Source of the DNA: Burkholderiales bacterium
Lineage (GTDB): Bacteria > Pseudomonadota > Gammaproteobacteria > Burkholderiales > SG8-39
Direction: 5' to 3'
DNA: 64,000 nt
Assembly: GCA_023383795.1 (NCBI GenBank)
Contig: JAHDYJ010000008.1
Location: forward strand, 3,582-67,581
Shown: piece after piece, positions 11,221-27,018 of the stretch
How positions within the stretch are numbered: position 1 is the first letter of the stretch
Layout: each line of letters opens with the position of its first letter
The notes under the pieces: model-generated
Told to the model about the DNA's origin: nothing
Database searches by the model: none
What the model saw: the letters and a program-made list of their open reading frames with translations, nothing else
Made by a program: the position numbers and the translations under genes

Positions 11221-11304
11221 TCGCCGCCCTGTCTCGACTCTCCCGGCGGGGTCGATGCGCGCCGTCGGACGCCGCTCGCGGGCGCGGGAAGCGCCGCGCC
11301 CCGG

Positions 11305-11327
11305 TATGGTTTGTAGATCAAACTATA
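11305..11327. promoter_or_regulatory. AT-rich palindromic operator candidate TATGGTTTG-TAGAT-CAAACTATA upstream of xdhC-marR
   Basis: Read directly. 9-nt arms match in 8 of 9 positions around a 5-nt spacer. It lies 85 nt upstream of the xdhC start. The reverse complement begins TATAGT (-10-like). Confidence 0.6.
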
Positions 11328-11436: not shown

Positions 11437-11754
11437 TCAGGCCTTGACGCCTTCGAGCAGCTGCTGCAGCTCGCCCGACTGGTACATCTCGCGCAGAATG
11501 TCCGAGCCCCCCACGAACTCGCCGTTCACGTACAGCTGCGGGATCGTCGGCCAGTTCGCGAACTGCTTGATGCCCTGGCGGATCTCCGGGTCCTCCAGCA
11601 CGTTCACGCTGGCGAAGTCGTCGATCCCGCACGCGTTGAGGATCGCCACCGCGTTGGCGGAGAACCCGCATTGCGGGAAGTCGGGCGTGCCCTTCATGTA
11701 GAGCACCACCTTGTTGCTCGTCACGGTCTGCTTGATGCGGTCTTGCACGTCCAT
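11437..11754 (-). CDS. grxD: Monothiol glutaredoxin, Grx4 family
   Basis: 105 aa with the CGFS active site (PQCGFSANAV) and WPTIPQLYVNGEFVGGSDI. Confidence 0.95.
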   Translation of the reverse strand: MDVQDRIKQTVTSNKVVLYMKGTPDFPQCGFSANAVAILNACGIDDFASVNVLEDPEIRQGIKQFANWPTIPQLYVNGEFVGGSDILREMYQSGELQQLLEGVKA

Positions 11755-11855: not shown

Positions 11856-12668
11856 TCACGAGGCCCGTCCCACGGTCACGCGCGCGATGCCGGCGAGGTC
11901 CGGCACGCTCGCGACGCCGGCGTACCCCCGCTCGGCCAGGAGCGCCCGGCATCGCTCCGCCTGATCGTGCCCGTGCTCGAGGGCGAGCCAGCCGCGCGGA
12001 GCGAGATGGTCGCGGGCCTCCCGCACGATTCGGCGGATGCAGTCGAGGCCGTCCGGGCCGCCGACGAGCGCCGCGCGCGGCTCGAAGCGCACGTCGCCCT
12101 CGTCGAGGTGGGGATCGTCCGCGGCGACGTAGGGCGGGTTCGAGAGGATCAGGTCGAACCGCTCGCCGCGGAGCGACCCGAACCAGTCCGACTGCACGAG
12201 ATGCACGCGCGGCGCATGGCGGGCGGCGTTCCTGCGTGCGACGGCCAGCGCTTCGGACGAAGCGTCGGTCGCCCACACCTCGACCGAGGGCGCCGCGTTT
12301 GCGAGCGCGACCGCGACCGCGCCGCTGCCGGTGCCGAGATCCAGCGCGCGGCGGGCGCCTTGCGCGGCGCGGCGCAGCGCGAAGTCCACCAGCAGCTCCG
12401 TCTCCGGACGCGGGATCAGGACGGCCGGCGTGACTTCGAGCGCGAGACCGTAGAACTCGCGCACGCCGAGGATGTACGCGACCGGCTCGCCGGCGCGCCG
12501 CCGCCGGAACAGCTCGCTCGCCTGCGCGCTCCGCGCGTCGTCCAGCGGATCGTCGGAGTGCGCGACGAGCCAGGCGCGATCCACGCCGAGGCTCGCTGCG
12601 AGCAGCAGCCGCGCCTCGGCTGCGGGCAGTCCGCTCTCCCGGATCAGGGCGCTGACGGCGGCGGGCAT
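11856..12668 (-). CDS. prmC: Release-factor glutamine N5-methyltransferase
   Basis: 270 aa. SAM motif LDLGTGSGAVAVALA and catalytic NPPY (LILSNPPYV); PrmC/HemK architecture. Confidence 0.9.
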   Translation of the reverse strand: MPAAVSALIRESGLPAAEARLLLAASLGVDRAWLVAHSDDPLDDARSAQASELFRRRRAGEPVAYILGVREFYGLALEVTPAVLIPRPETELLVDFALRRAAQGARRALDLGTGSGAVAVALANAAPSVEVWATDASSEALAVARRNAARHAPRVHLVQSDWFGSLRGERFDLILSNPPYVAADDPHLDEGDVRFEPRAALVGGPDGLDCIRRIVREARDHLAPRGWLALEHGHDQAERCRALLAERGYAGVASVPDLAGIARVTVGRAS

Positions 12669-12762
12669 CGGAGCGCGCGGGCGGGCATTTCCGCGCGATG
12701 TTTGCGCACGCCGCCGCGCCGTGCAAGACTACCTCGCAGGACTCGACACTCCATCCGCCCAG

Positions 12763-13404
12763 ATGCCGCAAAGGACCGGCCCGTTTGCCCACCTCGACGA
12801 GGCCGGCCTGCGCGAGCTCGCCCCGCACGGGGCGATCCGCACCTTGCCCAAGAACGTGGTCGTGGTCACCGAGGGCGACGCCACCGACACCCTGTACGTC
12901 GTCCTCTCCGGCCGGGTCAAGGCGTACGTCGCCGACGAGAACGGCCGGGAGGTGGTCGTCAACACGATCGGCGCGGGCGACTATTTCGGCGAGCTGGTGC
13001 TCGACGGCGGGCCGCGCGCCGCCTCGATCATGACGCTCGAGCCGTGCCGCTTCTACGTGATTCCGCGCGCCGACGTCGAGGGGCTGCTGGAGCGCAGTCC
13101 GGCTTTCGCGCGCGACCTGATCTACGCCCTGATCGGCAAGGTGCGCGCGCTGACCGACGCCGTGCGCGACCTCGCCCTCAAGGACGTATACGCGCGACTC
13201 GCCAAGTTCATCGAGGAGCACGCGGTCGAGCAGGAGGGCGTGCGGGTGATCCCCGAGCGCCTGACCCAGCACGACATCGCCGCGCGCATCGGCGGCTCGC
13301 GCGAGATGGTGAGCCGCATCGTGAAGGACCTGACGGCCGGTGGCTACATCTCGATCGAGGCCAAGCACATCGTCGTGCACCGGAAGCTGCCGGCGCACTG
13401 GTGA
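12763..13404 (+). CDS. Crp/Fnr-family cyclic-nucleotide-binding transcriptional regulator
   Basis: The ATG at 12763 within track ORF 12472..13404 gives 213 aa. cNMP-binding domain (GDYFGELVLDGGPRAASIMTLEP) plus a C-terminal HTH (LTQHDIAARIGGSREMVSRIVKDL). No clear RBS. Confidence 0.85.
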   Translation: MPQRTGPFAHLDEAGLRELAPHGAIRTLPKNVVVVTEGDATDTLYVVLSGRVKAYVADENGREVVVNTIGAGDYFGELVLDGGPRAASIMTLEPCRFYVIPRADVEGLLERSPAFARDLIYALIGKVRALTDAVRDLALKDVYARLAKFIEEHAVEQEGVRVIPERLTQHDIAARIGGSREMVSRIVKDLTAGGYISIEAKHIVVHRKLPAHW

Positions 13405-13589
13405 GCCGCTGACGACACCCCTCCGGCGGCCTCGTGGCGGCCGCTCGCGAGGGGCGGCCGACGCAATGTGAATCCGGCACTTTTCGCCTATGGCGGACGG
13501 CGACGCGACTGCCCTCTTCTGCCGCCTAGAGTCATTCCACGAGGCCGGCGACTCCCGCCGCCCGAGGACATAGCCGAAAGGAGACGACG

Positions 13590-13985
13590 ATGTTCAAGAC
13601 CACCATGGCCGTGCTGTGTGTCGCCGCCCTGCTCATCCCGGCCGCCCGCGCCGACGATAGCCCGGCCGCAACCAGAGAGGCTGAGCTGGGCACGTATGCT
13701 CGGGCGATCGCCATCTACCGTGCCGACACCCGGAGCAGCGATTCCAGGGCCCGGGAGATGGTCGGCCTCATGCTGTGGTTCGGCGACCCGGCGCCCCACG
13801 GGCCGCTGACGCGCGACGGCGGCGCAGCGACGCAGTGGCTCGCGCGGACCACCGCGCACGGCGGCAAGGCTGCCCACTTCGCGCTAGCCACCCAGGACAT
13901 TCGGGACGCCCGGGCCACAGAGCAGGCGAAAGCGCAGCAAGGGTACGGGTGCGGCGAGCTGCTCGAGTATCTGGACGACCGCTGA
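13590..13985 (+). CDS. Hypothetical secreted protein (signal peptide; possibly Sel1-like helical repeat)
   Basis: RBS AAGGAG 7 nt upstream. N-terminus MFKTTMAVLCVAALLIPAARADD looks like a Sec signal. No confident family. Confidence 0.55.
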   Translation: MFKTTMAVLCVAALLIPAARADDSPAATREAELGTYARAIAIYRADTRSSDSRAREMVGLMLWFGDPAPHGPLTRDGGAATQWLARTTAHGGKAAHFALATQDIRDARATEQAKAQQGYGCGELLEYLDDR

Positions 13986-14121
13986 GCCCTCAGCAGCCCG
14001 CGGCGGCACTCGCCACCCCTCAGGGGGGCCGCCGCGGCGACCGAGGCCCCCCATTCGGCCTATTCCGGGCGTCCTGCGCAAGTGTATGATGCTCGCGCCC
14101 GTCTCCCCAGGGAGGAGATCC

Positions 14122-17100
14122 ATGGCGCCGAAGCGAGCACGCGTCGGTGTGGTGGTGTTGGGGGCTTTTTTTCTCGTGGCGCCCTTGGCCCAAGGGCAGA
14201 TCACCACGGACGGCACGCTCGGCCCGGCCGGCGCGCTCGCGGGGCCGCATTACGCGATTCCGGCCGACCTCGGGCGCCAGGCGGGCGCCAACCTCTTCCA
14301 CAGCTTCGGACTCTTCAACCTCGCCACCGGCGAGAGCGCGACCTTCTCCGGCCCGGGCTCGGTCGCAAACATCATTTCGCGGGTCACCGGCGGGCAGGCC
14401 TCTAGCATCGACGGGCGACTCGCCTCGACGATCCCCGGCGCCAATCTCTTCCTGATCAACCCGCGTGGGGTCCTCTTCGGGCCAAACGCGAGCCTGGATC
14501 TCACCGGCTCGTTCAGCGCGTCGACGGCGGACTACCTGCGCTTCGCCGACGGCACGCGCTTCGAGGCGACGGCCACACCGGGGCCGATCCTCACCTCGGC
14601 GCCGCCGGCGGCGTTCGGGTTCCTCGGGCCGACCGGCGCGGTCGCCTTCCAGGGCTCGACGTTCGACCTCGCACCCGGACCGGGGCTCTCGGTCGCGGCC
14701 GGCAGCATCGCCCTGGACGGCGCGCTGCTCCGCACCCGCGCCGCCGACCTCCGGCTCGCGGCGGTGTCCGCGGGCGAGCTCCCGCTGGACGCGACCGCCG
14801 CACCCTCGACCGGCAGCGCGATGGGCGATGTCGGCGTCAGTTTCTCCCAGGTGCGGACGGTGAGCAGCGGCGACCTGCCGCCCGGCCGCCTCGTCATCCG
14901 CGGCGGCCAGCTCACGATCGCCGACTCGGTCGTGCGGGCCACCAACGGCTCTCCGGCGGATGCGCCGCCGGTCGAGCTGCTCGCTTCGGGCGATCTCAGA
15001 TTCTCGGGAGGCCAGTTCCTCGCAAATGCGCAGGGCGCCGGGCGGGGTGCGGACCTCGTCGCGCGCGGCGAGAACGTCACGATTGATCGCGCAGCACTGG
15101 TCCAGGCGTGGTCGACCACCTCGGGAGCCGTCGGCGAGATCGATTTCGAGGCACGTAACGCTCTGCGCATCGTCGCGGCGCCCGACGATCCCGACTACAC
15201 AGCGGTGAACAACGCGGTCTTCGCCGACGGCTCCGGCGGCGCCACGCGCTTGAGCGGCGACACGGTCACGGTCGACGCTGCGATCGTGAACAACGTGACG
15301 TTCGGCGCCGGCAATACCGGCCCGGTCGTCATGCGCGGGCGCGAGGTGATCCTGACCAATGGCGCCTTCGTGCTGAACGAGGTCAAGCCCGACGCCCCGG
15401 GACGTGGCGACGACGTCGACATCGCCGCCACCGAGCGCGTTTTCATCGGCAAGCACGACTGGTGGGATTTCCAGTCGGAGATCGTCACGGTCACGCGCGG
15501 GCCGCAGGACGCCGGCAACGTTCGCGTGGTTGCACCCCTCATCGAGGTCATCGGCGGCACTGTGCACAGCATCACCAACGGCACGGGGAACACCGGGGTG
15601 CTCGAGTTCGTCGGCGACGTCATACGCTTCCTCGGCGGCTACGGCGGCATCGCGTTCGTCGACACGACGTCGGAATGGACCGCCACCGGAAACAGCGGCA
15701 ATATCGACGTGCGGGCGTCGACTTCGTTCGAGATCGGCCGGGGCGACAATCCTGACGGCTGGAGCCGGATGACCACGTCCAGTTTCGGCGCGGGGCGCAG
15801 CGGCGACGTGACCGTGGATTCTCCGCTCGTCACCGTGCGCGGCCTGCAGGCGATCTGGAGCTCCATTTTCGGCACCGGCGACGGCGGCTCGATCCGCATC
15901 CGCGCGCACGACGTGAACGTGTTCGACAACGGCGAGATCCAGACCGGCGTATTCTGGGGCGCCACCGGACGCGGCGGCGACATCGTCATCGAGGGAACGG
16001 GCAGGCTCTACATCTCGGGATTCAATCAGCCGCTGCCGGGCGGAGGCCTGATCACCACGCTGACCGAGTCCCCGGGCCGCGCCGGCGACATACGGATCAG
16101 CATCCCGGTGGTCGAGACCGCATTCGAGACCGGGCCCCGGATCCTCTCCGGCACCGTCGGCGAGGGCGACGCAGGCAACATCGAGATCGCCACCGGACGG
16201 CTGATGAGCCGAGGCGGCGGGATCGAGGCAACGGCGTTCAATTTCTCGTCGGGCAAGGCCGGCGACATCCAGATCGTCGCCTCCGAGGCGATCGAGCTGG
16301 TCGGCCGCCCGTTCTACTGGTGGGAGGGCGTCTTCTCGCGCGCGCAGGGTACGGGCGACGCCGGGAGCATCTCGCTTGCGGCGCCTCGGGTCGTGCTCGA
16401 CGACCAGCGCGTGTGGGCGACCGCCTACTACATCGCCGACGGCGGCCGGATCGACATCGACACGAACGAGCTCATCCTGCGCAACGGCGGGCAGCTCGAT
16501 GCGCGAACGCTGGACGGGTCGAGCGGTGCGGCCGGCTCGGTGCAGGTCCGCGCGCGGGACCGGATCGAGATCACCGGCATGAGCCCGATCGACGCGGCGT
16601 TCAGCGGTATCAACGCCCAGACCGGCGGCTCCGGTCCGAGCGGCGGCATCCGGATCGAGACTGGCGACCTGCTCATCGATCGCGGATTCGTCAAGTCCAC
16701 GGCCAACGGGAGCGGCAACGCAGGCGACATCGACATCACCGCCCGTACCGTGACCCTCGTGAACGGAGGCCGGATCGACGCGAGCGCGGCGCCCGGATCG
16801 AGCGGCGCCGGGGGCAGCATCTCGGTGAACGCAGCCGAATCGATCTACGTCGGCGGTGTGGACCGGTCGCCGATCATCGTCGAGCAGGAACCCGTTCCAG
16901 GCGCCGATGGCGTGAACCAGCGCGGCCGTCCGCAAGGTGCGCTTGCGAGCACCATTACGACGAGCACCGCGGGCAGCGGCGCCGGGGGACGCGTCCTGCT
17001 CGTTGCGCCGCGGATCGACGTAGCCAGCGAAGGTCGCATCGAGGCCACGAGCACCGGCACCGGCAACGCTGGATCGATCGAGCTCGTGGCGCCCGACGCG

Positions 17101-17706
17101 CTGCGGATCTTCGGCGGCACGATCAGCTCGGAGGCGCTGGCAGCCGACGGCGGCAACATCGACGTCCGCGTCGGCAACCTCGTACACCTGAAGAACGCCG
17201 AGATCTCCACCGCGGTGGGCTCGGGCGAAGGTCGCGGCGGCAATATCACGATCGACCCGACCTTCGTGATCCTGCAGAACTCGAAGATCGTCGCCAACGC
17301 CTTCGGCGGGCCGGGCGGCAACATCCGCATCGTGGCGGACTACTTCCTGTCCTCGCCCGACAGCCTGATCGACGCCTCCTCGCAGCTCGGCGTATCGGGC
17401 CGCGTGGACATCTCGGCGCCGCGCACGGACCTCAACAACGGGCTCAAGCCGCTGCCGGAACAGTTCTTCGACGCGTCGACGCTGCTGCGCGAGACCTGCG
17501 GCGCGCGGGCTGCGGCGGGCGGCACGGCGAGCAGCCTGGTGGATGCGGGGCGCGGCGGGCTCGCGGCCTCGCCCGAGCGGTTCGCCGCGTCGAGCTACTT
17601 CGCGGGTGCGCCCGCCGCCGCGTCGCCGCGTGCGATGGCGGACGAACCGCTCGGCCTGAGGCTCGTTTCCGCGAAACGGGCGCGCCTGATCGCCTGCAAC
17701 GGCTAG
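14122..17706 (+). CDS. TpsA-type exoprotein: filamentous-haemagglutinin N-terminal (TPS) domain plus beta-helix repeats
   Basis: The ATG at 14122 follows GGGAGGAG (the track ORF starts at 14086). Signal peptide, then TPS motifs ANLFHSFGLFNL, NIISRVTGGQASSIDGRL and LFLINPRGVLFG. Many G-x-x-G-[DSN]-[IV]-x-[IV] repeats follow (GNAGDIDI, GDAGSISL, GRGGNITI...). Confidence 0.9.
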   Translation: MAPKRARVGVVVLGAFFLVAPLAQGQITTDGTLGPAGALAGPHYAIPADLGRQAGANLFHSFGLFNLATGESATFSGPGSVANIISRVTGGQASSIDGRLASTIPGANLFLINPRGVLFGPNASLDLTGSFSASTADYLRFADGTRFEATATPGPILTSAPPAAFGFLGPTGAVAFQGSTFDLAPGPGLSVAAGSIALDGALLRTRAADLRLAAVSAGELPLDATAAPSTGSAMGDVGVSFSQVRTVSSGDLPPGRLVIRGGQLTIADSVVRATNGSPADAPPVELLASGDLRFSGGQFLANAQGAGRGADLVARGENVTIDRAALVQAWSTTSGAVGEIDFEARNALRIVAAPDDPDYTAVNNAVFADGSGGATRLSGDTVTVDAAIVNNVTFGAGNTGPVVMRGREVILTNGAFVLNEVKPDAPGRGDDVDIAATERVFIGKHDWWDFQSEIVTVTRGPQDAGNVRVVAPLIEVIGGTVHSITNGTGNTGVLEFVGDVIRFLGGYGGIAFVDTTSEWTATGNSGNIDVRASTSFEIGRGDNPDGWSRMTTSSFGAGRSGDVTVDSPLVTVRGLQAIWSSIFGTGDGGSIRIRAHDVNVFDNGEIQTGVFWGATGRGGDIVIEGTGRLYISGFNQPLPGGGLITTLTESPGRAGDIRISIPVVETAFETGPRILSGTVGEGDAGNIEIATGRLMSRGGGIEATAFNFSSGKAGDIQIVASEAIELVGRPFYWWEGVFSRAQGTGDAGSISLAAPRVVLDDQRVWATAYYIADGGRIDIDTNELILRNGGQLDARTLDGSSGAAGSVQVRARDRIEITGMSPIDAAFSGINAQTGGSGPSGGIRIETGDLLIDRGFVKSTANGSGNAGDIDITARTVTLVNGGRIDASAAPGSSGAGGSISVNAAESIYVGGVDRSPIIVEQEPVPGADGVNQRGRPQGALASTITTSTAGSGAGGRVLLVAPRIDVASEGRIEATSTGTGNAGSIELVAPDALRIFGGTISSEALAADGGNIDVRVGNLVHLKNAEISTAVGSGEGRGGNITIDPTFVILQNSKIVANAFGGPGGNIRIVADYFLSSPDSLIDASSQLGVSGRVDISAPRTDLNNGLKPLPEQFFDASTLLRETCGARAAAGGTASSLVDAGRGGLAASPERFAASSYFAGAPAAASPRAMADEPLGLRLVSAKRARLIACNG

Positions 17707-17726
17707 CCGCGGCCCATAACAAGAAG

Positions 17727-19466
17727 ATGGTCTTCCGGCCGCGCGCCCGAGTGTCGTCTTGTGTGCGGCGCGCGCTGCCGGCGCTCGCGCTAGTCGTCGC
17801 CGCCGCGACCGGCGCCGCGCACGCGCAGGTGAGCGTGCCGCTCGATCAGCTGCCGCGCCCGCGCGACGAGCCGCTGCCGGAGCCGCCGGCGCAGGTGCCG
17901 AAGCCCGCGATCGAGCTGCCGCCCGCGGTGCCGCGCCCGCAAGAGCCGGCGCTCTCGCGCGGCGTCCGGGTCATGCCGCGCGCGTTCCGCTTCGTGGGCA
18001 ACACGGTCGTTCCCGACGCCGACCTCCAGACGATCGCCGCGCCTCTCGTCGGACGCCCGATCGGCAACGCCGAGCTCGAGGAGCTGCGGCTTGCGGTCAC
18101 GCGCCGCTACGTCGAGGCGGGCTACGTGAACTCCGGCGCCGTGATTCCGGATCAGGACGTCTCCGACGGCACGATCACGCTGCGAATCATCGAGGGGCGC
18201 CTGAGCGAGATCGTCGTGGGCGGACCGCATCATTTCCGGCCTACCTATCTGCGCGACCGGCTCGCGCTCGGCGCAGGCCCGCCGCTCAACGTGAACGAGC
18301 TGCAGGAGCGCATGCAGCTCATCCTGCAGGACCCCCAGATCGAGCGCATGGAAGCGCAGCTCGCACCCGGCGTGGAGCGTGGCGATGCGGTGCTGCGAGT
18401 GGACGTCACCGAAGCGAAGCGCTTCCTCGCGGGCGTGACGCTGTCGAACGATCGCTCGCCGGTGGTGGGCGAATACCAGGCCGAGGCGTTCGCGGCGGCG
18501 CGCAACCTTCTTGGCCGCGGCGACGCTCTCACGATCCGCGCGGCCGGCACGGAGGGGATCGGCGACTACTCGGCCGGCTTTTCGCTGCCGGTCTCGGCGC
18601 GCGGCACGCTGCTCAACCTGCGCTACACGCGCACCCGCAGCACGGTGGTGGAGCCGCCGCTCGACCAGCTCGACATCGGCGCGCGCTCGTACTCGTTCGA
18701 CGCCGCGCTCGCGCATCCGCTCTACGAGTCGTTGCGGCGGGTTCTGACCGCGAGCATCGCGCTCTCCCGGCGCGCGACGCAGAGCCTGTTCCTCGGCGAG
18801 CCGTCGCCGTTCATCCCCGGCGCGCCGGACGGCCGCACGACCGTGAGCGTGTTGCGCTTCGGCCTGGACGGCGTCTCGCGCTCGCAGCAGGAGGTGGTGG
18901 CGGGCCGCGTGCTCGTCTCGCGCGGGCTCGACGCCTTCGGCGCGACGGTGTCGAGCGATCCGCGCATCCCCGATTCGCGGTTCACCGCGCTGCTCGGCCA
19001 GTTCCAGTGGGTGCGCGCGCTGTCCAGGGACGGCCAGCTCCTCGTGCGCGCGGACGGCCAGTACGCGAACGACGCGCTGCTCGGGCCGGAGAAGTACTCG
19101 CTCGGCGGATTGGACAGCGTGCGCGGCTATCGCAAGGACGCGCTCGTGCGCGACAACGGCTGGTTCGCCTCGGCGGAGTACCGTCACCTGGTCGGGCGCG
19201 TCCCGGTGATGGGGAGTGCCACGCCCGACGAGGGCGCGGTCCGCCTCGCCGCGTTTGCCGACTACGGGCGCGCGTGGGACAAGGACGGCCCGCCGAACGT
19301 GCCGAAAGTCCTATCGAGCGTCGGGACGGGCGTGCGCTGGGAGCCGGCGCGCGGCGCGGACTTCCTGCTGTACTACGGCTACGCGCTCCGCGACCTCGAC
19401 ACCCCGACGCGCGGGCCGTCGGACCGCGGCATTCACGCCCGCTTCACGGTCAGCCGGGCGTTCTAG
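17727..19466 (+). CDS. TpsB-type outer-membrane transporter (ShlB/FhaC/HecB family, POTRA + beta-barrel)
   Basis: The ATG at 17727 within track ORF 16320..19466 gives 579 aa. Signal peptide, POTRA segment FRFVGNTVVPDADLQTIAAPLVGRPIGNAELEELRLAVTRRYVEAGYVNSGAVIPDQDVSDGTITLRIIEGRL, and a C-terminal barrel ending ...GIHARFTVSRAF. Confidence 0.9.
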   Translation: MVFRPRARVSSCVRRALPALALVVAAATGAAHAQVSVPLDQLPRPRDEPLPEPPAQVPKPAIELPPAVPRPQEPALSRGVRVMPRAFRFVGNTVVPDADLQTIAAPLVGRPIGNAELEELRLAVTRRYVEAGYVNSGAVIPDQDVSDGTITLRIIEGRLSEIVVGGPHHFRPTYLRDRLALGAGPPLNVNELQERMQLILQDPQIERMEAQLAPGVERGDAVLRVDVTEAKRFLAGVTLSNDRSPVVGEYQAEAFAAARNLLGRGDALTIRAAGTEGIGDYSAGFSLPVSARGTLLNLRYTRTRSTVVEPPLDQLDIGARSYSFDAALAHPLYESLRRVLTASIALSRRATQSLFLGEPSPFIPGAPDGRTTVSVLRFGLDGVSRSQQEVVAGRVLVSRGLDAFGATVSSDPRIPDSRFTALLGQFQWVRALSRDGQLLVRADGQYANDALLGPEKYSLGGLDSVRGYRKDALVRDNGWFASAEYRHLVGRVPVMGSATPDEGAVRLAAFADYGRAWDKDGPPNVPKVLSSVGTGVRWEPARGADFLLYYGYALRDLDTPTRGPSDRGIHARFTVSRAF

Positions 19467-20361
19467 CGCGCGCGGCGAGGTCCGGATCGTCCGCCCGCTC
19501 GGCGGCGAGCCGCCGCCAGTGCGCTGCCGCGTCCTCGCGCATGCCGAGCTCCTCGAGGAGCAGGGCATAGAGCACCCGATCGCCGAAGCGCGCGTCCGCC
19601 GCGGGGCGATCACGCTCGACGCGGGCGCGGAGCTCCGCGCCGGCGAGCCCGAACTCGGTCCAGCCTTCCGGCGCCGCGCCGTCGGCGAGCTCGGCCCACA
19701 CCTGCCAGCCGTACGTGTGCCCCGCCTCCAGGGCGACGGCCGCAGGCAGCTCGATCGACGTGGCGGCGGTGCGTGCCTCGTGCAGCGGCCGGCCGCTGGC
19801 GTCGGTGAGCTGGAAGCGATAGCTCTTGGCGCCGCTCACCGGCTCCCATCGGAACGCTGCCGGGCGCTCGAGCAGCCACGTCGACACCGGGAAGGCGAGC
19901 CGCACCGGGCGGGCCGTCTCGCCGCCGCGCATGCTGATGCTCGCCTGCGCGATGCGCGCCGTGCGCAGGCGCACCTCCTTCATCGATGCGCTCCCCGGTG
20001 CACGCGCGACGAGCTTGCCCGGCCGCACGATCTCCATGGCGCCGTTCGACCAGCGGAACGCTCCCGGCCCGAGCAGCTCGAACTGCCGCCCGCTCGCGCT
20101 GTCGAGGACCGTCACACGCGCGCCGGGCGCGAGCGAGACCTCGGCGCCGGGCGCCAGCCCGGCCAGGATGCCGACCCGTCCCCCGCCGGCGACTGTCGCG
20201 CCGCCCTGCACGTCGATTACGAGGCCCGGCAGCTCGGCCGGCCGGGCGGCTCCCGGCCACGCGAGGAGGAACCCGGCCGCGAGCGCGGCGATCCAGGCAC
20301 GCCACGCCGGCCCGCGGCGCGCCGCAGACGCGAAGCACGGGATGCGACAAGCGATGCTCAT
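19450..20361 (-). CDS. Hypothetical exported protein, last gene of the CHAT operon (possible FecR-like beta-sandwich N-domain)
   Basis: 303 aa with a hydrophobic N-terminus (WIAALAAGFLLAWPGAARPAE). The start overlaps the cyclase stop as ATGA. Amino-acid composition is not the Arg/Ala junk of shadow ORFs. The family assignment is only a guess. Confidence 0.6.
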   Translation of the reverse strand: MSIACRIPCFASAARRGPAWRAWIAALAAGFLLAWPGAARPAELPGLVIDVQGGATVAGGGRVGILAGLAPGAEVSLAPGARVTVLDSASGRQFELLGPGAFRWSNGAMEIVRPGKLVARAPGSASMKEVRLRTARIAQASISMRGGETARPVRLAFPVSTWLLERPAAFRWEPVSGAKSYRFQLTDASGRPLHEARTAATSIELPAAVALEAGHTYGWQVWAELADGAAPEGWTEFGLAGAELRARVERDRPAADARFGDRVLYALLLEELGMREDAAAHWRRLAAERADDPDLAARARTPG

Positions 20362-22187
20362 GGCTCACCTCCGCGGGCCGCCCGTCCTGCATCGTCTCGC
20401 GCGCGCGTTCGCGGCGGCCAGCCGAACACGCGTACCGGCGAGTGACCCTTCAGCGGCTGCTCGCCAAGGTCGTCGAACGACGCCCGGCCCCGCAGCGCCT
20501 GCACGACCGCCTCGGTCGCCACCAGCGGGTATCCGAGCCCGGCCGCGAGACCCTCGATCCGGGCCGATACGTTCGCGACGTCCCCGATGGCAGTGTACTC
20601 GTTCCGCTCGGCGCCGCCGATACGGCCGACGACCGATTCGCCGAACGCGAGCGCGAGGCCGATCCGCACCGGCTCCGCGCCCTCGGCCGCGAGCTCCCGG
20701 TTCAGTTCCTCGACCTCGGCGAAGAGCGCCCGCGCGGCGAGGAACGCATCGTGGCACGGATCGGCGGTCGGCTGCGGCGCGCCGAACAGGCACATGATGC
20801 CGTCGCCGCGGAAGTTGTCCAGCGTACCCCCGTACCGGTGTACCGCGCCGGCAACGCGCGTGAAGTAGCGGTTCAGCAGCCGCACCGCCTCTTCCGGCGC
20901 GACCCGCTCGGAGTACGGCGTGAAACCGCGAATGTCGCCGAACATCACGCAGAGCCGCCGCCGTCCGCTGCCCACCGCGGTGTCGAGCTCGCCGCGCAGG
21001 ATCAGGTCGAGCACGTTCGGGCTCACCGCGCCGGCGAACGCCGCCCGGAGCCGCTGCCGCTGGCGGCGGTTGAACCAAGATTCGTAGCCGACGCGCAGCG
21101 TGCCGGCGAGGCCCGCCGTCGCGATCGCGCCCGCGACCGGCAGGTAGACGCCGCGCTGCAGGAGCCAGGTGCCGAGGCTGAAGGCGCCCGCCGCGAAGAT
21201 CGCCAGCGCCGCGACGCCGCCGCCGACGCCGGCAAACGCGAACCACATGCCCGCGCCCGCCAGCACCAGCAAGAGCGTGGCGGCGACCGGAGCGTCGGCA
21301 ATGGCGCCCGGGCCGAGCAGCGTGCGCAGCGCCTGGCCGTGCGCCACGACCCCGGGCACGGTGCTCGAGGTCTCCCAGCCGGCGAGCTGCACCGGTATCC
21401 GGTGGCGGTCGACGAACGGCAGCACGCTGCCGACCAGCACGACACGATCCGCGAACGCCGACTGCAGGCGCTTCGCGTCGTCCGCCGCGGCCCACGCGCT
21501 CACCTCATGGGCCGGGACGTAGCCGAACGGCGCACCCAGCGTGAAGTCGATCAGGCCGGGTCGCGGCCGCGCGCCGAGCCGGCGCGCGAGCGTTCCGGTC
21601 AGCGTCGGCACGTCGGCGTCCGCTTCGCCCTGCCGTTCGTCGAAGCGCCGCACCGCGAGGTCAACGTCGAACTCCCAGGTCGCGAGACCGAGGCCGTCGG
21701 CGCCCGCAACCGCGAGAAACGGCGCGTGCACGGGCTTGACCCGGCCGGCGCCGTCCACGCCGCGCGCGATCACCACCGGGCACACCGCGCGCAGCGCGAC
21801 GAGCGCCCGCAGGAGCTCGGCGTCGAGCCCGGGCTGGACGAAGTCGTAGGAACGCTCCGGAAGCTCCACGTCCACGCCGACCGCCCGGGGGCGCGCCATG
21901 GCAAGTCCGTAGAGGACGCCCGCCAGGCGCCGGTGCCACAGCGCGAGCGGCTCCGGAAAGGCCTGCAGCGTCGCCTCGTCTATGCCTACGAGCGCCACGT
22001 CGACTGGCGCCGGACGCGGCTGCAGCGCGCGCAGCGCGCGGAACTGCGCGTCGAGGAGCTGCAGCTCGAGCCAGCGCGTGAACGGGGCGAGCTGGAGCGC
22101 GCCGCAGACCGCGGCGATCAGGAGCCACGCGGCGGCCGCGCCGCGCGGGGTCAGGGCGTCCTCCGAGCGCGCCGGGACTGTCGACAT
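20358..22187 (-). CDS. CHASE2 sensor domain - transmembrane - class III adenylate/guanylate cyclase
   Basis: The internal ATG at 22187 of track ORF 20358..22499 gives 609 aa. Order: N-terminal TM, periplasmic CHASE2-like region (VALVGIDEATL...VGVDVELPE...VLVGS), hydrophobic segments at about aa 300-360, then the cyclase domain (LCVMFGDIRGFT...GDGIMCLFGAP...YTAIGDVANVSARIE). Confidence 0.9.
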   Translation of the reverse strand: MSTVPARSEDALTPRGAAAAWLLIAAVCGALQLAPFTRWLELQLLDAQFRALRALQPRPAPVDVALVGIDEATLQAFPEPLALWHRRLAGVLYGLAMARPRAVGVDVELPERSYDFVQPGLDAELLRALVALRAVCPVVIARGVDGAGRVKPVHAPFLAVAGADGLGLATWEFDVDLAVRRFDERQGEADADVPTLTGTLARRLGARPRPGLIDFTLGAPFGYVPAHEVSAWAAADDAKRLQSAFADRVVLVGSVLPFVDRHRIPVQLAGWETSSTVPGVVAHGQALRTLLGPGAIADAPVAATLLLVLAGAGMWFAFAGVGGGVAALAIFAAGAFSLGTWLLQRGVYLPVAGAIATAGLAGTLRVGYESWFNRRQRQRLRAAFAGAVSPNVLDLILRGELDTAVGSGRRRLCVMFGDIRGFTPYSERVAPEEAVRLLNRYFTRVAGAVHRYGGTLDNFRGDGIMCLFGAPQPTADPCHDAFLAARALFAEVEELNRELAAEGAEPVRIGLALAFGESVVGRIGGAERNEYTAIGDVANVSARIEGLAAGLGYPLVATEAVVQALRGRASFDDLGEQPLKGHSPVRVFGWPPRTRARDDAGRAARGGEP

Positions 22188-22207
22188 CGGGCGCCCCGGG
22201 TCGAGCG

Positions 22208-22921
22208 TCACTCGGCGCGATCGAAAGCGGCCACCTCCGCGAGGCCGGCCTGCTCCAGCAGCGCCGCGCGGACCGCGCGCAGGCCGCGATCGCCCGGGCG
22301 CGCCGCGACGCCCGCGGACAGCGTCGCGAGCGCGTCGTACCACAGACCTTCGGCGGCGAGCGCCCCCGCGCGACGCCCGGGGTCGGTCTCGCGCAGCAGG
22401 TCGTGCAGCGCGTCCGACGGCGCCACGCGCATGATCGCGCCGCCCGCCACGACGTCCCGGGAGCGCTGCTCCGGATCGAGCACGACGGCGACCGACCACT
22501 CGTACTGCACGTTCGGCTCGAGCCGGACGCCCGCGCGCCCGGAGTCGAACGACTGGATCCCCGCGCGATCGCCGGCGACATGCGCCTCGACGAGCGGGCT
22601 CGACCGCCGCGGATCGATCAGGACGAGCTCGATGCGCGCCCCGGTCGGCGCCGACAGGAACCAGTGCAGCGTCGGCTGCTCCGAGAGCGTGAGCCCGAGG
22701 TGGTCGGGCGCCAGCACCTCGACGCGGGGCACGCCGGCCAGCAGCGCGCGCGCGACGCCGCCGATGCGGCGCGGCGCGGGATCGACCGCCGGCGCCCGGT
22801 AGTGCACGGCATCGGCCGGCGCTTCACCCGCGGCCCGCGCTCCGGGAGCGAGCGCGACGGCCGTCGCGGCGAGGAGCACCAGCGGACGCGGGACGAACAG
22901 CGATCGGATACCGGTTCTCAT
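22208..22921 (-). CDS. DUF928 domain-containing exported protein
   Basis: The internal ATG at 22921 of track ORF 22208..24316 gives 237 aa. Signal peptide, then PRRIGGVAR, VLAPDHLGLTLSEQPTLHWFL and LEPNVQYEWSVAVVLDPEQRSRDVVAGGAIMRV fit the DUF928 pattern from memory. Confidence 0.8.
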   Translation of the reverse strand: MRTGIRSLFVPRPLVLLAATAVALAPGARAAGEAPADAVHYRAPAVDPAPRRIGGVARALLAGVPRVEVLAPDHLGLTLSEQPTLHWFLSAPTGARIELVLIDPRRSSPLVEAHVAGDRAGIQSFDSGRAGVRLEPNVQYEWSVAVVLDPEQRSRDVVAGGAIMRVAPSDALHDLLRETDPGRRAGALAAEGLWYDALATLSAGVAARPGDRGLRAVRAALLEQAGLAEVAAFDRAE

Positions 22922-22977
22922 CTGCCGCTCCTTCCGCGGGCGCGGATCGATCGTTCGGCGCGCATGCGACGCGTCGG

Positions 22978-25275
22978 TCACAGCCAGTTCCCGATCACCA
23001 GGAACGGCGACCAGTAGCCCGGGTGCCGGTAGCGAAGATCGGCGAGGAGCTTGCGCTGCGCGCGCCGGAGCGCCTCGGCCTTGGTGACGCCGGGCTCGCC
23101 GAGCTGCCGGTAGAACTCGGCCACGAGCATGCTGGACGCCTGATCGTTGATGTGCCACAGCGTGGCGAGCGCGCTGCGCGCGCCCGCCTTCACTGCGACG
23201 CCGGCCAGGCCGAGCGCGGCGCGCTCGTCGCCCGCCGCGGTCTGGCACGCGCTCAGGAAGAGGAGCTCGATCGGCTCGTCGCGGAAGCGGTTCGCCTTCA
23301 TGCTCGCTTCGAGGCGGTCGATCGTCATGCGGCCGTCGTAGGTGAGCAGGAAGGAGCGGCGCGAGTCGGCGTCGAACCGGGCGTGCGACGCGAGGTGCAC
23401 GACCGCGAAGGTCTTGTCGCGCAGCTCGCGCTCCAGGTTCTCCGCGGTGAACGTCCGGTCGCGCAGCACATGGCCGGCGGCAAACGCGCCGAGCTCGTCG
23501 AGCTCGATGCCGACGAACGGCAGCGCCGGGTAGCCCTGCACCGGCTCGGTGAGCCCGCTCGCGAGAACGCGCGCGGAGCGCAGCGCGAGCGGCCGCGGCT
23601 CGACCAGCGTCAGGCTCGGCGCGGTGGCGAGCGCGTAGCGCGCGATCACGAAGTCGGTGCCGTCGTGCAGCGCCCCGAGCGGGATCGAGCGCAGCGGCTG
23701 GTCCGGCACGAAGACGAGCGTATCGACGCCCGCGTCGGCGAGCACCTTCTCCATCGGCCGGATGACCCAGTCGTAGAGCCGGCGCGCGTGCGGCAGGTAC
23801 TGGTACGTCGTGCGCTTCTCGAGCAGGCGGCGCAGCGCGAGCGCCTCGGCGCGCAGCGCCGGCTCGCCCACCGGCACCGTGAACAGCCGCATCTCGCTGC
23901 CGATGCTCACGAGGAGCTCGAGCCGGTCGGCGAGCGGCACCGGATAGATCACCGCGGTGCGCGCGGCGGTGTGCTCGACCGGGCGCGCGCGGGCGAGATA
24001 GCGCGCGACGCAGTCGTCGCGGAAGTAGTCCTCCAGCTCGACGGTCTTGAAGCGCTCGAGCACCGCGCGCGCCTCCTCGAGCCCGCTCCGCACGCGCGCC
24101 GGGTCGCCGGTGGCGGCCGCCTGCCGCAGCAGGAGATCGGTGAAGCCGAGGAACGCCGGGCCGACCTCGGCGCGGAACGACTCGCGGCTCGCCCAGAGCT
24201 CCGCGGCGTAGTCGGCCTTCACCGCGGCAAGCGCGGCGAGCGCGCGCCGGTAGGCGGCGAGCGCGTCGTCGGCGCGGCCGGCGCGATCGGCGATCCGCGC
24301 CGACTGCCACTGCCACAGGAAGATCGCCTCGGGCGCGCCGCTCGCCTGGGCCGCGAACGTCGCGCGCGCGTTCAACGACTCGGCGTCGGCGCGCCGGCCG
24401 CGATCGAGCGCGAGCTCCGCGCGATAGCCGAGCGCGTATGCGGCGGCGCGCGCATCGCCGAGCCGCTCGGCCATCCGCTCCGCGGCGGCGAGCGACGCTT
24501 CGGCCTCGCCGCGCAACGCTTCCGCCGGGCCGCCGCCCGCGGCCCGCCGCAGCAGCTCGCCGGCGCCGGCGAGCTGGAACGCCGATTCGCGCGAGTCCGG
24601 AAGCGTGCCGAGAACCGCGATCGCTGCGCGCGCGGAGGCGGCCGAATCGGCGTGCCTTCCGGCGCGCTGCAGGACCCGCGCGGCGTTCACCTGCGCCTGG
24701 GCGGCGAGCAATCCGTCGTCGGCTGCGCGCGCAAGCCGTGCCGCCGCCGCGAACGCCTCAAGCGCCGGCGTCGTCCGGCCGTCCGCCGCGAGCGCGAGCC
24801 CGCGATCGTTCTGCACAGCCGCCTCGATGCGCGGCGCCTGCGCCCGACGCGCGAGCTCGAGCGCCTGCGCGAGCACCGGTTCGGCGCGCTCCGAATCCCC
24901 GGCGAGAAAGTACGCCTGGCCGAGCGCGCCGGTCAGCGCGGCACGAAGCCCCGCTGGTGCGTCGCGGCCCTCAAGCAGGGCGACGGCCTCCCGCAGGTCC
25001 GCGAGCGCGTCCGACCGGTGCCCGAGCGATTGCCGGACCTCGGCGCGCCGCGCGAGCGCTTGGGCGAGCGCGAGCGGCTCGGCGCGCTTGCGCTCTGCCT
25101 CGACCGCGTCGGTCGCGCGACGGGCCGCCGCTTCCCAGGGGTCGGTGGCGGAGCGGGAAACGACCGGCGCGCCCGGTCCGACCGCGCGCCCGTCCGCTTC
25201 CTCCGCCGCGTGCGCGGCGCCGGCGGCGCCGAGCTGCAACGCCAGGCTTGCAGCAGCGAGCGCTCGGGCCTTCAC
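22978..25275 (-). CDS. TPR-repeat CHAT-domain (caspase-fold) protease with signal peptide
   Basis: 765 aa. Signal peptide MKARALAAASLALQLGAAGAAHAAEE, a long Ala/Leu-rich TPR-like helical region, and a C-terminal CHAT domain with a His/Cys dyad context (VVHLASHARF ... LLFLSACQTAAG). Confidence 0.9.
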   Translation of the reverse strand: MKARALAAASLALQLGAAGAAHAAEEADGRAVGPGAPVVSRSATDPWEAAARRATDAVEAERKRAEPLALAQALARRAEVRQSLGHRSDALADLREAVALLEGRDAPAGLRAALTGALGQAYFLAGDSERAEPVLAQALELARRAQAPRIEAAVQNDRGLALAADGRTTPALEAFAAAARLARAADDGLLAAQAQVNAARVLQRAGRHADSAASARAAIAVLGTLPDSRESAFQLAGAGELLRRAAGGGPAEALRGEAEASLAAAERMAERLGDARAAAYALGYRAELALDRGRRADAESLNARATFAAQASGAPEAIFLWQWQSARIADRAGRADDALAAYRRALAALAAVKADYAAELWASRESFRAEVGPAFLGFTDLLLRQAAATGDPARVRSGLEEARAVLERFKTVELEDYFRDDCVARYLARARPVEHTAARTAVIYPVPLADRLELLVSIGSEMRLFTVPVGEPALRAEALALRRLLEKRTTYQYLPHARRLYDWVIRPMEKVLADAGVDTLVFVPDQPLRSIPLGALHDGTDFVIARYALATAPSLTLVEPRPLALRSARVLASGLTEPVQGYPALPFVGIELDELGAFAAGHVLRDRTFTAENLERELRDKTFAVVHLASHARFDADSRRSFLLTYDGRMTIDRLEASMKANRFRDEPIELLFLSACQTAAGDERAALGLAGVAVKAGARSALATLWHINDQASSMLVAEFYRQLGEPGVTKAEALRRAQRKLLADLRYRHPGYWSPFLVIGNWL

Positions 25276-25476
25276 GCGAGGTCTCCCTCGATGGCGACCG
25301 GCTAGCTTCGCGCATCTCCGATCCGCCGGTCAAGTGCTCGGCCGCGCCGCGCACGGAACGTGAATTCGTCACAAAGTCGCAGTGAAGTGGTTCGCCGAGA
25401 TCGCGCGCGGGACGGTTCAGAGTGCTCCTCACCGGGCGGGCGATTCGCGCCGGCCCTCGGACCAAAGGAGGCTCTG

Positions 25477-25764
25477 ATGACCGCAATCCGTGGAACCGCC
25501 TCCCAGCGAGGCTCTTCAAGGGTGCCCCAGCTGGCGCTCAAGGCCGTCGTCGTCATCGCATTCGGGGTCGCGCTCGTCGCCCTCGCCCGCGGGCCGGTGA
25601 CCGTGGGCGGCAGCGCGCTCGCGCCCGCCGCCGCGACCGGGCAGCCCGCCGGGAAGGGTGCTCCCCAGGAGGCGCAGAGCGGTGCGCCCGAGCAGGTGCG
25701 CTACTTCCCGCGCGAGTTCCCCGACGTGGGCGGCGATCCGGCGCCGGTCTACGACACGTTCTGA
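25477..25764 (+). CDS. Small hypothetical single-pass membrane protein, divergent from the CHAT operon
   Basis: The ATG at 25477 is preceded by AAAGGAGG. 95 aa with one TM (LALKAVVVIAFGVALVALA). No family assignment. Confidence 0.45.
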   Translation: MTAIRGTASQRGSSRVPQLALKAVVVIAFGVALVALARGPVTVGGSALAPAAATGQPAGKGAPQEAQSGAPEQVRYFPREFPDVGGDPAPVYDTF

Positions 25765-25917
25765 GAAACGCGCGAGGTGCCTGAGCGCTGACGACCTGGA
25801 CAGCTCCGCGCCGCGTGCTCCTCCGGCACGGAGCGTTTTCCGGCCCTTCGCCGGGCGCCCGGGCGCACCGCCCGCGGCGTCCGCCGCAGGGCCCTTTTCT
25901 TGCGGGTACGCGGCCGG

Positions 25918-27018
25918 TCAGGGCGCCGGCTGCGCCGCGGTCTCCTCGGCGAGCGCCGCGAGCTGCTCGGCCTGGTGCTCGGCGGCGAGCGCGCCGGTGA
26001 GCTCGTCGAGGTCGCCGTCCATGATCGCCTGGATCTTGTAGAGCGTCAGGTTGACGCGGTGGTCGGTGACGCGGCCCTGCGGGAAGTTGTAGGTGCGGAT
26101 GCGCTCGGACCGGTCGCCGCTGCCGATCAGGCTCTTGCGCGTGGCCGCCGTCTTCGCCGCCTGCTCGCGCATCTGCTTGTCGCGGATGCGCGCGGCGAGC
26201 ACCGACATCGCCCGCTCCTTGTTCTTGTGCTGCGAGCGCGCGTCCTGGCACTCGACCACGATGCCGGTGGGCAGGTGCGTGATGCGGATCGCCGACTCGG
26301 TCTTGTTCACGTGCTGGCCGCCGGCGCCGGAGGCGCGGAACGTGTCGATCTTGAGATCGGCCGGGTTCAGATCCACCTCGCTCACCTCGTCGACCTCCGG
26401 CATCACCGCGACGGTCGCCGCGGAGGTGTGGATGCGCCCCTGCGTCTCGGTCTCCGGCACGCGCTGCACGCGGTGCCCGCCCGACTCGAACTTGAGCTTG
26501 GAGTACGCGCCGCGGCCGATGACGCGCGCGATCACCTCCTTGTAGCCGCCGAGGTCCGAGGGGCTCTCGGAGATGATCTCGACCGTCCAGCGCTTGCGCT
26601 CGGCATAGCGCGAGTACATGCGGAAGAGATCGCCGGCGAAGAGCGCCGACTCCTCGCCGCCGGTGCCGGCGCGGATCTCGAGGAAGATGTTGCGCTCGTC
26701 GTTCGGATCCCTCGGCAGGAGCAGCTTCTGGAGCTCGGCCTCGAGCTCCGCGAGGCGCGCGTTGCCCTCCTCGATCTCGGGCTCGGCGAGCGCGCGCATC
26801 TCGGCGTCGGCGAGCATCTCCTTCGCGCCCGCGATATCGCGCTCGGTCTGACGGTAGCGGTTGTAGAGATCGACGATCGGCGCGAGCTCGGCATGCTCGC
26901 GCGACAGGCGGCGGAACGAATCCATGTCGCGCGTGGCGGCCTCGGACGCGAGCAGCCCGTCGAGTTCCGCGAGCCGCCGGCGGAGCTGTTCGAGCTTGGC
27001 GGCGATGCTGGGTTTCAT
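25918..27018 (-). CDS. prfA: Peptide chain release factor 1
   Basis: 366 aa with [20 protein letters not shown] (GGQ motif) and the RF-1 PxT region. Confidence 0.97.

Follow-up and report, generated by a model that had tools for sequence, protein, structure and literature searches.

A widespread combination of two-partner secretion, an exported TPR-CHAT protease, DUF928 and CHASE2-cyclase signalling in a bacterial gene block

Content and layout of the gene block

The gene block described here occupies positions 12763-25764 of a 64,000-nucleotide stretch of contig JAHDYJ010000008.1 from a Burkholderiales bacterium; this whole stretch is called the window below. Nine genes lie within its 13 kb (Table 1). 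They include a two-partner secretion (TPS) pair, tpsA and tpsB, and, on the opposite strand, genes for a TPR-CHAT protein, a DUF928 protein, a CHASE2 receptor with a class III cyclase and a 303-aa protein, together with a Crp-like regulator gene at one edge. We conclude that the block represents a widespread combination of known parts, namely two-partner secretion and cyclic-nucleotide (cNMP) envelope signalling through CHASE2, of which our search found no description. The features that may make it a single envelope-spanning module are set out below.

The G+C content of the window is about 72%, and the mechanical list of open reading frames (ORFs) is therefore crowded with spurious frames. Gene models were taken from frame analysis of G+C content at third codon positions (GC3) together with inspection of start codons, and domains were assigned by Pfam search. 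For the CHASE2 gene the mechanical ORF begins at GTG 22499; a frame switch in GC3 near 22200 places the real start at ATG 22187 instead. All seven domain families named in a first-pass annotation of this DNA score above their Pfam thresholds in the window.

On the minus strand, the 303-aa gene and the CHASE2-cyclase gene are joined by a 4-nt ATGA overlap (20358-20361), and gaps of 20 nt and 56 nt separate CHASE2-cyclase from DUF928 and DUF928 from CHAT, respectively. On the plus strand, tpsB starts 20 nt past the tpsA stop, and its 3' end converges with that of the 303-aa gene, the two overlapping by 17 nt (19450-19466). The overlaps and short gaps had been read correctly in the first pass. 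Export or membrane signals occur on all proteins of the block except the cyclase domain and Crp, which supports the earlier proposal that everything apart from these two is extracytoplasmic.

Two small ORFs lie at the edges. That at 13590-13985 starts with a hydrophobic, signal-like N-terminal helix and has no Pfam or NCBIfam match. Both had been pointed out before as a small secreted and a small membrane protein, and both are present, but neither has a homologue among 87 related loci; they are therefore not counted as parts of the module.

Table 1 Features of the gene block, with positions in the window and E-values of domain matches
Feature	Position	Strand	Length	Domains, motifs and remarks
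Crp-like regulator gene	12763-13404	+	213 aa	cNMP_binding 8.7e-24, HTH_Crp_2 1.8e-10 (Pfam)
Small secreted ORF	13590-13985	+	131 aa	No family match; GC3 0.87
tpsA	14086-17706	+	1206 aa	TPS 2.9e-34; TIGR01901 3e-18
TpsA C-terminal module	17353-17706	+	about residues 1090-1206	C1138, C1204, R1156
tpsB	17727-19466	+	579 aa	POTRA_2 5.5e-21, ShlB 8e-28; VRGY at 465
303-aa MtxA-family protein gene	19450-20361	-	303 aa	No Pfam family
CHASE2 + class III cyclase gene	20358-22187	-	609 aa	CHASE2 1.3e-24, Guanylate_cyc 2.8e-13
DUF928 gene	22208-22921	-	237 aa	DUF928 2e-28 (Pfam)
TPR+CHAT gene	22978-25275	-	765 aa	CHAT (PF12770) 3.3e-54
Inverted repeat TGTGA-N5-TCAC	25360-25373	-		CHAT/small-ORF intergenic region
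Small membrane ORF	25477-25764	+	95 aa	One transmembrane helix; no family; divergent from CHAT gene

Recurrence of the core gene set across phyla

The comparison with other genomes was anchored on DUF928. Each species was represented by one genome, and a single peptide pattern found 173 relatives among them, of which 80 loci were taken for analysis; iterated hidden Markov models (HMMs) built from the window proteins were run on six-frame ORFs of the relatives' loci. Component counts refer to the 38 species-representative loci whose flanks are complete.

Of these 38 loci, 37 contain TPR-CHAT, and TpsB and TpsA are found in 34 each. The CHASE2-cyclase occurs in 16 (about 40%), the Crp-like protein in three and the 303-aa protein in two. 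The core is made up of TpsA, TpsB, the exported TPR-CHAT protein and DUF928, usually co-directional: all four lie on a single strand in 24 of the 31 loci that have the four. The first-pass annotation had treated the TPS pair as a convergent neighbour of the remaining genes; the convergence is real in the window, but across relatives the pair belongs to the core. To this core the CHASE2-cyclase is a frequent facultative add-on, and a Crp-like or other cNMP-binding protein an occasional one.

The typical order in Nitrospira is TpsA-TpsB-CHAT-DUF928, and outside Nitrospira it is TpsA-TpsB-CHAT-CHASE2cyclase-DUF928, such that in many species the CHASE2 gene sits inside the operon, between CHAT and DUF928. 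The loci span Betaproteobacteria, Gammaproteobacteria, many Nitrospirota, Deltaproteobacteria, Verrucomicrobia, Methylacidiphilales, a Thermodesulfovibrio and a spirochaete, and four metagenomic relatives at 40-66% identity have the same neighbours around DUF928. Gene order, too, is repeated in metagenomic relatives and on a Nostoc plasmid, where the locus reads DUF1822, CHAT-CHASE2 fusion, DUF928, TpsA, TpsB, TPR-CHAT.

Co-conservation across phyla argues that the genes are functionally linked, and the presence of the same gene set in dozens of species argues that their co-location is neither due to chance nor peculiar to this strain. The check for co-conservation that had been proposed with the first-pass annotation thus came out in its favour. 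Its idea of a signalling unit survives in part: the linkage is borne out by co-conservation and by the fusion proteins described below, but the counts for CHASE2 and Crp do not place the cNMP branch at its centre.

Several loci depart from the usual composition. In the Nostoc locus (Nostoc sp. UHCC 0302, plasmid NZ_CP151101.1; L088) the CHASE2 protein, at 5647-8004, has an N-terminal CHAT domain in place of the cyclase; this locus has two CHAT proteins, with the DUF1822 gene upstream and a short additional TPS-domain gene downstream. Two Nitrospiraceae loci have three tandem DUF928 genes after the CHAT gene (L044, 8923-11324; L068, 9073-11482), and another locus, L080, has two DUF928 genes.

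The two-partner secretion pair and the C-terminal module of TpsA

Judged by their domains, TpsA and TpsB constitute a two-partner secretion pair. TpsA has a hydrophobic N-terminus at 18-36 (signal peptide), a TPS domain (PF05860) at residues 60-241 with NPRG at residue 125, and a repetitive body; its TIGR01901 match is to adhes_NPXG, and an HMM of the body matches internal repeats, as seen in the Nostoc homologue (L088). TpsB combines POTRA_2 with a ShlB barrel bearing the loop-6 VRGY motif.

In an alignment of 44 C-termini, conservation of the last ~115 residues of TpsA extends from Betaproteobacteria to Nitrospira and Cyanobacteria. These residues follow the pattern ...ASSQFGxxGTVxIxxP...LLxxxC...SSFxVxGR(G/D)xLPxxP..., then a variable linker and a Cys within the final eight residues. 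Exactly two Cys occur in 37 of the 44 C-termini, one of them among the last 8 residues, and in the window protein C1138 and C1204 are the sole cysteines of all 1206 residues. C45, G62 and R63 are invariant in the alignment (A5), the Gly-Arg pair corresponding to R1156 of the window TpsA. An HMM of the module matches the cyanobacterial cluster TpsA at 7e-15 and has no match in the window's second, unrelated TpsA (57557-63145). On this alignment and these matches, a two-Cys C-terminal module with an invariant Gly-Arg is specific to the TpsA proteins of the cluster.

A protein search with the module returned short, fragmentary gene calls. Three neighbourhoods were inspected: one (L093) has the full module together with CHAT and DUF928, one (L092) has decayed TPS fragments, and one (L094) was uninformative.

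The second TPS pair of the window lies at 57557-64000. Its TpsA, of 1862 aa, has TPS and MBG_2 domains, and its TpsB gene is truncated where the window ends. Within the window, neither a CHAT nor a DUF928 gene is seen next to this TpsA.

An exported clade of TPR-CHAT proteins

The CHAT domain has a caspase fold. In the window protein the HLASH motif at residue 627 covers His627 and His631, and LSACQT at 674 holds the catalytic Cys677, so that the HLASH...SACQT signature picked out in the first pass is present. The His (HxAxH) and Cys (LSACxT) columns are kept in 97% of 79 aligned cluster homologues. A signal-peptide-like N-terminus, basic and then hydrophobic before the first TPR, was found in 55 of 64 homologues, and the window protein likewise has one. 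These features identify the TPR-CHAT proteins, at the level of sequence, as an exported clade of caspase-fold cysteine protease with an intact His/Cys dyad. The TPR-CHAT protein alone gave no sequence-level match in the PDB.

TPR plus CHAT architecture and the His/Cys dyad are common to this family and to Csx29 of type III-E CRISPR systems, HetF and the gasdermin-activating CHAT proteases. The latter three are cytoplasmic and act in defence or differentiation, and to our knowledge the characterised CHAT proteases are all cytoplasmic. The family described here differs from the Csx29/HetF type in having signal peptides and in its linkage to TPS.

DUF928 and the MtxA family share a C-terminal half

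The 303-aa protein had been called unassignable in the first pass. A profile of 85 family members matches the PDB chain of MtxA, 4z29_A, at E 2.4e-8, with profile positions 25-283 aligned to chain positions 19-277, and because this match is nearly full length we assign the protein to the MtxA family. Its AlphaFold model (pLDDT 84) comprises an N-terminal helix, a beta domain (46-120), a low-confidence linker, an immunoglobulin (Ig)-like sandwich (155-239) and four TPR-like helices (242-300), and has 4Z29 as its best Foldseek match (E 5e-5). The linker carries a conserved SISMRG motif at 141-146, in which Arg145 is invariant in a 23-sequence alignment and nearly invariant in the 85 family members. 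A profile search of 1.84 billion representative proteins returned 349 clusters of this family at E<=1e-30, mostly of 275-300 aa.

MtxA is MGR_0208 of Magnetospirillum gryphiswaldense, described as a periplasmic protein that is encoded directly upstream of a CHASE2-adenylate cyclase gene and cut by trypsin near residue 141 (PMC4439547). The 303-aa gene likewise adjoins a CHASE2-cyclase gene, with which it overlaps. Each of the two proteins has a signal peptide and an N-terminal domain, a linker that is protease-sensitive or modelled with low confidence, Ig-like and TPR-like domains, and a CHASE2-cyclase neighbour. They differ in gene order, in that mtxA precedes its cyclase gene whereas the window gene follows it, and the passages of the MtxA paper that were consulted mention no CHAT or TPS genes (PMC4439547).

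The DUF928 protein matches PF06051 with 99.8 bits against a cut-off of 26. Its model (pLDDT 88) shows a signal peptide, a low-confidence N-terminal stretch, an Ig-like sandwich and five TPR-like helices; the N-terminal stretch bears a PxRRxGGxxR(G) motif, of which R58 is invariant. The best Foldseek match of the model is the C-terminal domain of MtxA (4Z29, E 3e-6), the same domain that is matched best by the model of the 303-aa protein. Narrower profiles of DUF928 and of the 303-aa family gave no sequence match in the PDB; aligned directly with hhalign, DUF928 and the C-terminal half of the MtxA family match at 95% probability (E 3.4e-8). This alignment begins exactly at the conserved Arg of each, R58 and R145. 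The profile comparison makes DUF928 a homologue of MtxA's C-terminal half, and its predicted structure is that of a periplasmic Ig-like plus TPR-like protein. As aligned, the two families have a homologous Arg, essentially without exception, immediately ahead of the Ig-like domain in a stretch modelled with low confidence.

Fusion proteins tie these domains to their neighbours. One family member joins MtxA-like, TPR and CHAT in a single chain, and another (P0171) joins CHASE2, cyclase and, at its C-terminus, MtxA-like. The betaproteobacterial branch of the gene block adds the MtxA-family paralogue of DUF928, often plus a locally encoded cNMP-binding protein. One relative, L091, has an MtxA-like gene and no DUF928 gene called, and the two proteins may therefore substitute for each other.

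The CHASE2-cyclase and the Crp-like regulator

The CHASE2 protein has a transmembrane segment at 16-34, a periplasmic CHASE2 domain (PF05226, residues 24-312), a transmembrane cluster at 296-343 and a cytoplasmic cyclase domain at 411-586, which by its predicted topology is the architecture of a CHASE2 receptor. In an alignment of 35 cluster cyclases with the Sinorhizobium meliloti pSymB cyclase, both metal-binding residues (Asp418, Asp462) and both transition-state residues (Asn539, Arg543) are kept, and the cyclase is probably active. At the substrate-specifying positions, the window protein and its closest relatives have Asn458 and Thr532, not Lys/Asp. In the remaining cluster cyclases the first of these positions is Lys, Asp or Ser and the second Thr or Ser, and the S. 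meliloti pSymB cyclase, taken as CyaK, has Lys/Ser. The best PADLOC matches of the cyclase are models of the Pycsar pyrimidine cyclase PycC (8.6e-18).

The Crp-like protein was compared with E. coli CRP by BLASTP, which aligned 197 aa at 28% identity. Glu77 and Arg85, which bind the phosphate, are kept, as are Arg180, Glu181 and Arg185 of the recognition helix; the equivalents of Ser83 and Ser128 are Ala and Asp, respectively. The best NCBIfam match is CRP, at 95.7 bits against an equivalog cut-off of 266. PADLOC returned Pycsar effector models at about 4e-8, the match being limited to the cNMP-binding domain. Crp-like genes lie inside four related clusters (L006, L007, L010 and L091). Eight co-occurrences with Crp were counted in the genome set, six of them with the cyclase and two in incomplete loci. 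In the relative L096, a SulP transporter with STAS and cNMP-binding domains (19168-20714) lies beside tpsA, at the Crp position.

The inverted repeat at 25360-25373 has a spacing one base under that of the canonical CRP box, and we treat it as a lead only. Two of the four near-matches to TGTGA-N5-TCAC are intergenic within the cluster, at 13467-13480 (between crp and the small ORF) and at 25360-25373. The regions upstream of the CHAT genes in six relatives have no palindrome in common. The only promoter-like site picked up by a promoter scan is weak and lies within a gene, and the cluster region (12500-26000) contains no intrinsic-terminator-like site against 3.2 expected from shuffled sequences.

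Comparison with characterised systems

The closest partial experimental precedent, by analogy, is the NsrA-CyaK/CyaD1/D2-Clr pathway of S. meliloti. There the CHASE2 cyclases CyaK, CyaD1 and CyaD2 depend on NsrA, an outer-membrane protein, and act via the Crp-like Clr; the signal is of protein nature, and the pathway serves the autoregulation of infection (PMC7529298, PMC13001267). The window block resembles it in having an inner-membrane CHASE2 class III cyclase, an adjacent gene for an outer-membrane protein and a Crp-family regulator (for cyclic AMP in S. meliloti). Both also have a periplasm-facing TPR element, which in S. meliloti is on the outer-membrane side.

We read the S. meliloti locus on pSymB of strain AK57. 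The ORF upstream of the CHASE2-cyclase ORF encodes FecR plus TPR, and from this gene order the two are taken to be nsrA and cyaK. NsrA is described with a beta-barrel at residues 600-1200, and the presumed NsrA ORF is unmatched by the TpsB HMM. No TpsA, TpsB, CHAT, DUF928 or MtxA-like gene was found at the pSymB locus, and conversely a Pfam search found no FecR domain in any window protein, so that the block is not an NsrA-type system. In the window the outer-membrane part is the TpsB/TpsA pair and the TPR lies on the protease; the resemblance is one of function, not of membership.

A second comparison is with Bordetella FhaB/FhaC, in which a TPS-domain TpsA is likewise exported by a POTRA_2/ShlB TpsB. 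The FhaB prodomain stays periplasmic and is removed by proteases, and a comparable fate is possible for the C-terminal region of TpsA. The systems differ in that FhaB is processed by housekeeping or serine proteases and lacks a caspase-fold protease of its own encoded in the operon; it also has no DUF928 or MtxA partners and no CHASE2 sensor; the module of the window TpsA, moreover, is short (~115 aa) and bracketed by two Cys.

The Lap system follows a logic like that of the mechanism proposed below: its giant surface protein sits in a pore of the outer membrane, a cysteine protease in the periplasm governs whether it is retained, and an inner-membrane protein is linked to a nucleotide second messenger. 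It differs in using type I secretion, the transglutaminase-like LapG and the cyclic-di-GMP-binding LapD, and we draw the parallel as an analogy only. LapG (DUF920), the GGDEF/EAL domains of LapD and type I adhesin domains are all absent from the Pfam results for the nine proteins. Lap signals inside-out, whereas a cyclase output would imply outside-in signalling in the window module.

The literature search found no account of the gene combination, in keeping with the first-pass statement that no characterised example was known. DUF928 is named in one unrelated survey, nothing was found that links the CHAT domain with two-partner secretion or hemagglutinin, and CHASE2 and CHAT were found together only in a catalogue of cyanobacterial metacaspases (PMC2853523).

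Proposed mechanism and alternatives

We propose, with a probability of roughly 0.45, that segment 12763-25764 is one envelope-spanning module with an outside-in mechanism that leads from a protease to a cyclic nucleotide. TpsB would export TpsA, with the Cys-bracketed C-terminal module staying in the periplasm. There the TPR-CHAT protein would engage, and probably cleave, the TpsA module, the Arg motifs of DUF928 and the MtxA-like protein, or both, and its action would set the maturation, retention or release of TpsA. The Ig-TPR proteins, DUF928 and MtxA-like, would then report the state of assembly to the CHASE2 ectodomain. The cyclase would answer with a cyclic nucleotide, most likely cyclic AMP although its specificity is uncertain, which the Crp-like regulator would turn into transcription. 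Such a module would mirror, in the outside-in direction, the adhesin systems that are controlled by a protease, and its wiring would resemble that of NsrA, the CHASE2 cyclases and Clr in S. meliloti. That CHASE2 turns periplasmic proteolysis into a cNMP signal is our inference; physical coupling in the periplasm is favoured by the fusion proteins and by the position of the CHASE2 gene inside the operon.

A number of points weigh against this proposal. CHASE2 is absent from more than half of the clusters, and the Crp gene from most; the core function therefore does not need a cNMP. The product of the cyclase cannot be read from its sequence, since the canonical Lys/Asp (ATP) or Glu/Cys (GTP) pair is absent. 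No canonical CRP (TGTGA-N6-TCACA) or FNR (TTGAT-N4-ATCAA) box lies in the intergenic regions of the cluster, and TGTGA-N5-TCAC, with 4 matches in the window against 5.8 expected, is not enriched. Retention of the TpsA C-terminus in the periplasm is assumed from the analogy with FhaB, and a preference of CHAT for Arg at P1 is presumed; the window DUF928 has Ala, not Gly, after its conserved Arg. Deletion of mtxA in Magnetospirillum gave no phenotype under standard conditions (PMC4439547).

A sharper version of the proposal would see in the module a trans-envelope signalling device not recognised before. It would make the TpsB/TpsA pair a surface receptor or antenna and have the exported protease translate an event at the surface into a cleavage in the periplasm, at the conserved Arg of the TpsA C-terminal module or of the DUF928/MtxA proteins. 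It would take the Ig-TPR protein, once cleaved or unmasked, as the CHASE2 ligand and treat the output as interchangeable, a cyclic nucleotide in the window and, in the cyanobacterial locus that was examined, another CHAT protease. In this much detail we consider it unlikely.

The best-surviving alternative reverses the flow of information. The CHASE2-cyclase would sense an unrelated ligand, periplasmic or external, and the cNMP and Crp would switch on a self-contained TPS/CHAT/DUF928 adhesin operon; the task of CHAT would be confined to maturing or releasing the adhesin, much as Bordetella FhaB is processed in the periplasm or LapA is cut by LapG. Loci such as those of Nitrospira, in which the core lacks CHASE2 (more than half), fit this arrangement, as do the Crp-like gene adjoining the operons, the CRP recognition residues R180, E181 and R185 retained by the regulator, and the TGTGA/TCAC repeat upstream of the CHAT gene. 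Against these stand the separate fusions of MtxA-like to CHASE2-cyclase and to TPR-CHAT, which point to coupling in the periplasm, and the many operons that hold CHASE2 between CHAT and DUF928. On the Nostoc plasmid, moreover, the CHASE2 output is a CHAT protease and not a transcription-linked cyclase, and the promoter motif is neither canonical nor enriched. We regard the reversed flow as doubtful.

Far less probable is a function in contact-dependent competition, with TpsA acting in the manner of CdiA, or in Pycsar-like anti-phage defence. TPS pairs do include CdiB/CdiA, the block looks inserted in a housekeeping operon (see below), the substrate-specifying residues of the cyclase are non-canonical, and PADLOC matched both cyclase and effector models. 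These matches are, however, confined to generic class III cyclase and cNMP-binding folds, and CHAT, DUF928, MtxA-like, TpsA and TpsB have no meaningful PADLOC match. Pycsar pairs a soluble pyrimidine cyclase with a cNMP-activated TIR or transmembrane effector; in the window, the cyclase is part of a CHASE2 receptor in the membrane, and the protein that would bind the cNMP is a DNA-binding regulator. As for competition, TpsA has no VENN motif and no toxin domain, tpsB and not a small immunity-like gene directly follows tpsA, and the TpsA C-terminus is conserved across phyla instead of polymorphic. We therefore rejected an assignment to contact-dependent inhibition on the missing VENN motif, the missing toxin domain and the conserved C-terminus.

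We give as little credence to a caspase-like pathway of cell death or differentiation, in which the exported CHAT protein would degrade envelope proteins on a cue sensed by CHASE2. Pathways of this type are discussed for cyanobacterial metacaspases and HetF. CHAT has a caspase fold, the Nostoc plasmid fuses CHASE2 to a cytoplasmic CHAT domain, and CHASE2-metacaspase fusions have been catalogued (PMC2853523). In the window, however, the CHASE2 output is a cyclase near a transcription factor, which suggests signalling and not killing, and the strict linkage to the TPS pair and DUF928 suggests a dedicated set of substrates. Finally, that unrelated neighbours came together by chance in this strain, as the convergence of two gene sets instead of one operon and the two non-conserved small ORFs might suggest, is refuted by the fusion proteins and by recurrence in Betaproteobacteria, Nitrospirota, Deltaproteobacteria, Verrucomicrobia, Gammaproteobacteria and Cyanobacteria, and has a next to negligible probability.

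CHASE2 receptors are widespread, and no defined direct ligand was found for them, the S. meliloti NsrA pathway being the only genetic handle. The module offers co-encoded candidate inputs in DUF928, the MtxA-like protein, TPR-CHAT and the C-terminal module of TpsA, and may thereby show what CHASE2 sensors detect. For CHAT it adds a large exported clade with obvious candidate substrates, and DUF928 and MtxA gain a structural and genomic context as homologous Ig plus TPR proteins tied to CHAT and CHASE2. Two-partner secretion gains a class that has its own protease and that, in many species, is also read out through a second messenger. The function likely matters for the surface behaviour of environmentally important bacteria, given the 173 relatives, nitrifying Nitrospira among them, and the Nostoc plasmid cluster.

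Genomic setting

The block lies between prfA (25918-27018, minus strand) and prmC (11856-12668, minus strand), with hemA (27130-28413) next on the prfA side and a glutaredoxin gene (11437-11754) on the prmC side. As hemA-prfA-prmC form one operon in E. coli, the whole 13 kb looks like an insertion. The block occupies the same site, after hemA-prfA, in the relative L096, and lies elsewhere in L095 and L001. No repeat of >=10 nt, whether direct or inverted, is common to the two insertion junctions, and the 64-kb window contains no tRNA gene and no Rfam family at threshold.

Further out on the minus strand, a long ORF (29260-32517) encodes a Ser/Thr kinase (Pkinase 3.5e-56). L096 also has a kinase gene upstream of hemA, and the kinase-hemA synteny is conserved between the two. 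Genes of the xanthine-dehydrogenase/aldehyde-oxidase type flank the region at 8680-11322, 33728-36061 and 43269-46319; they encode an FAD-binding subunit, XdhC and two molybdopterin-binding subunits, and are accompanied by a MarR regulator gene at 9957-10454.

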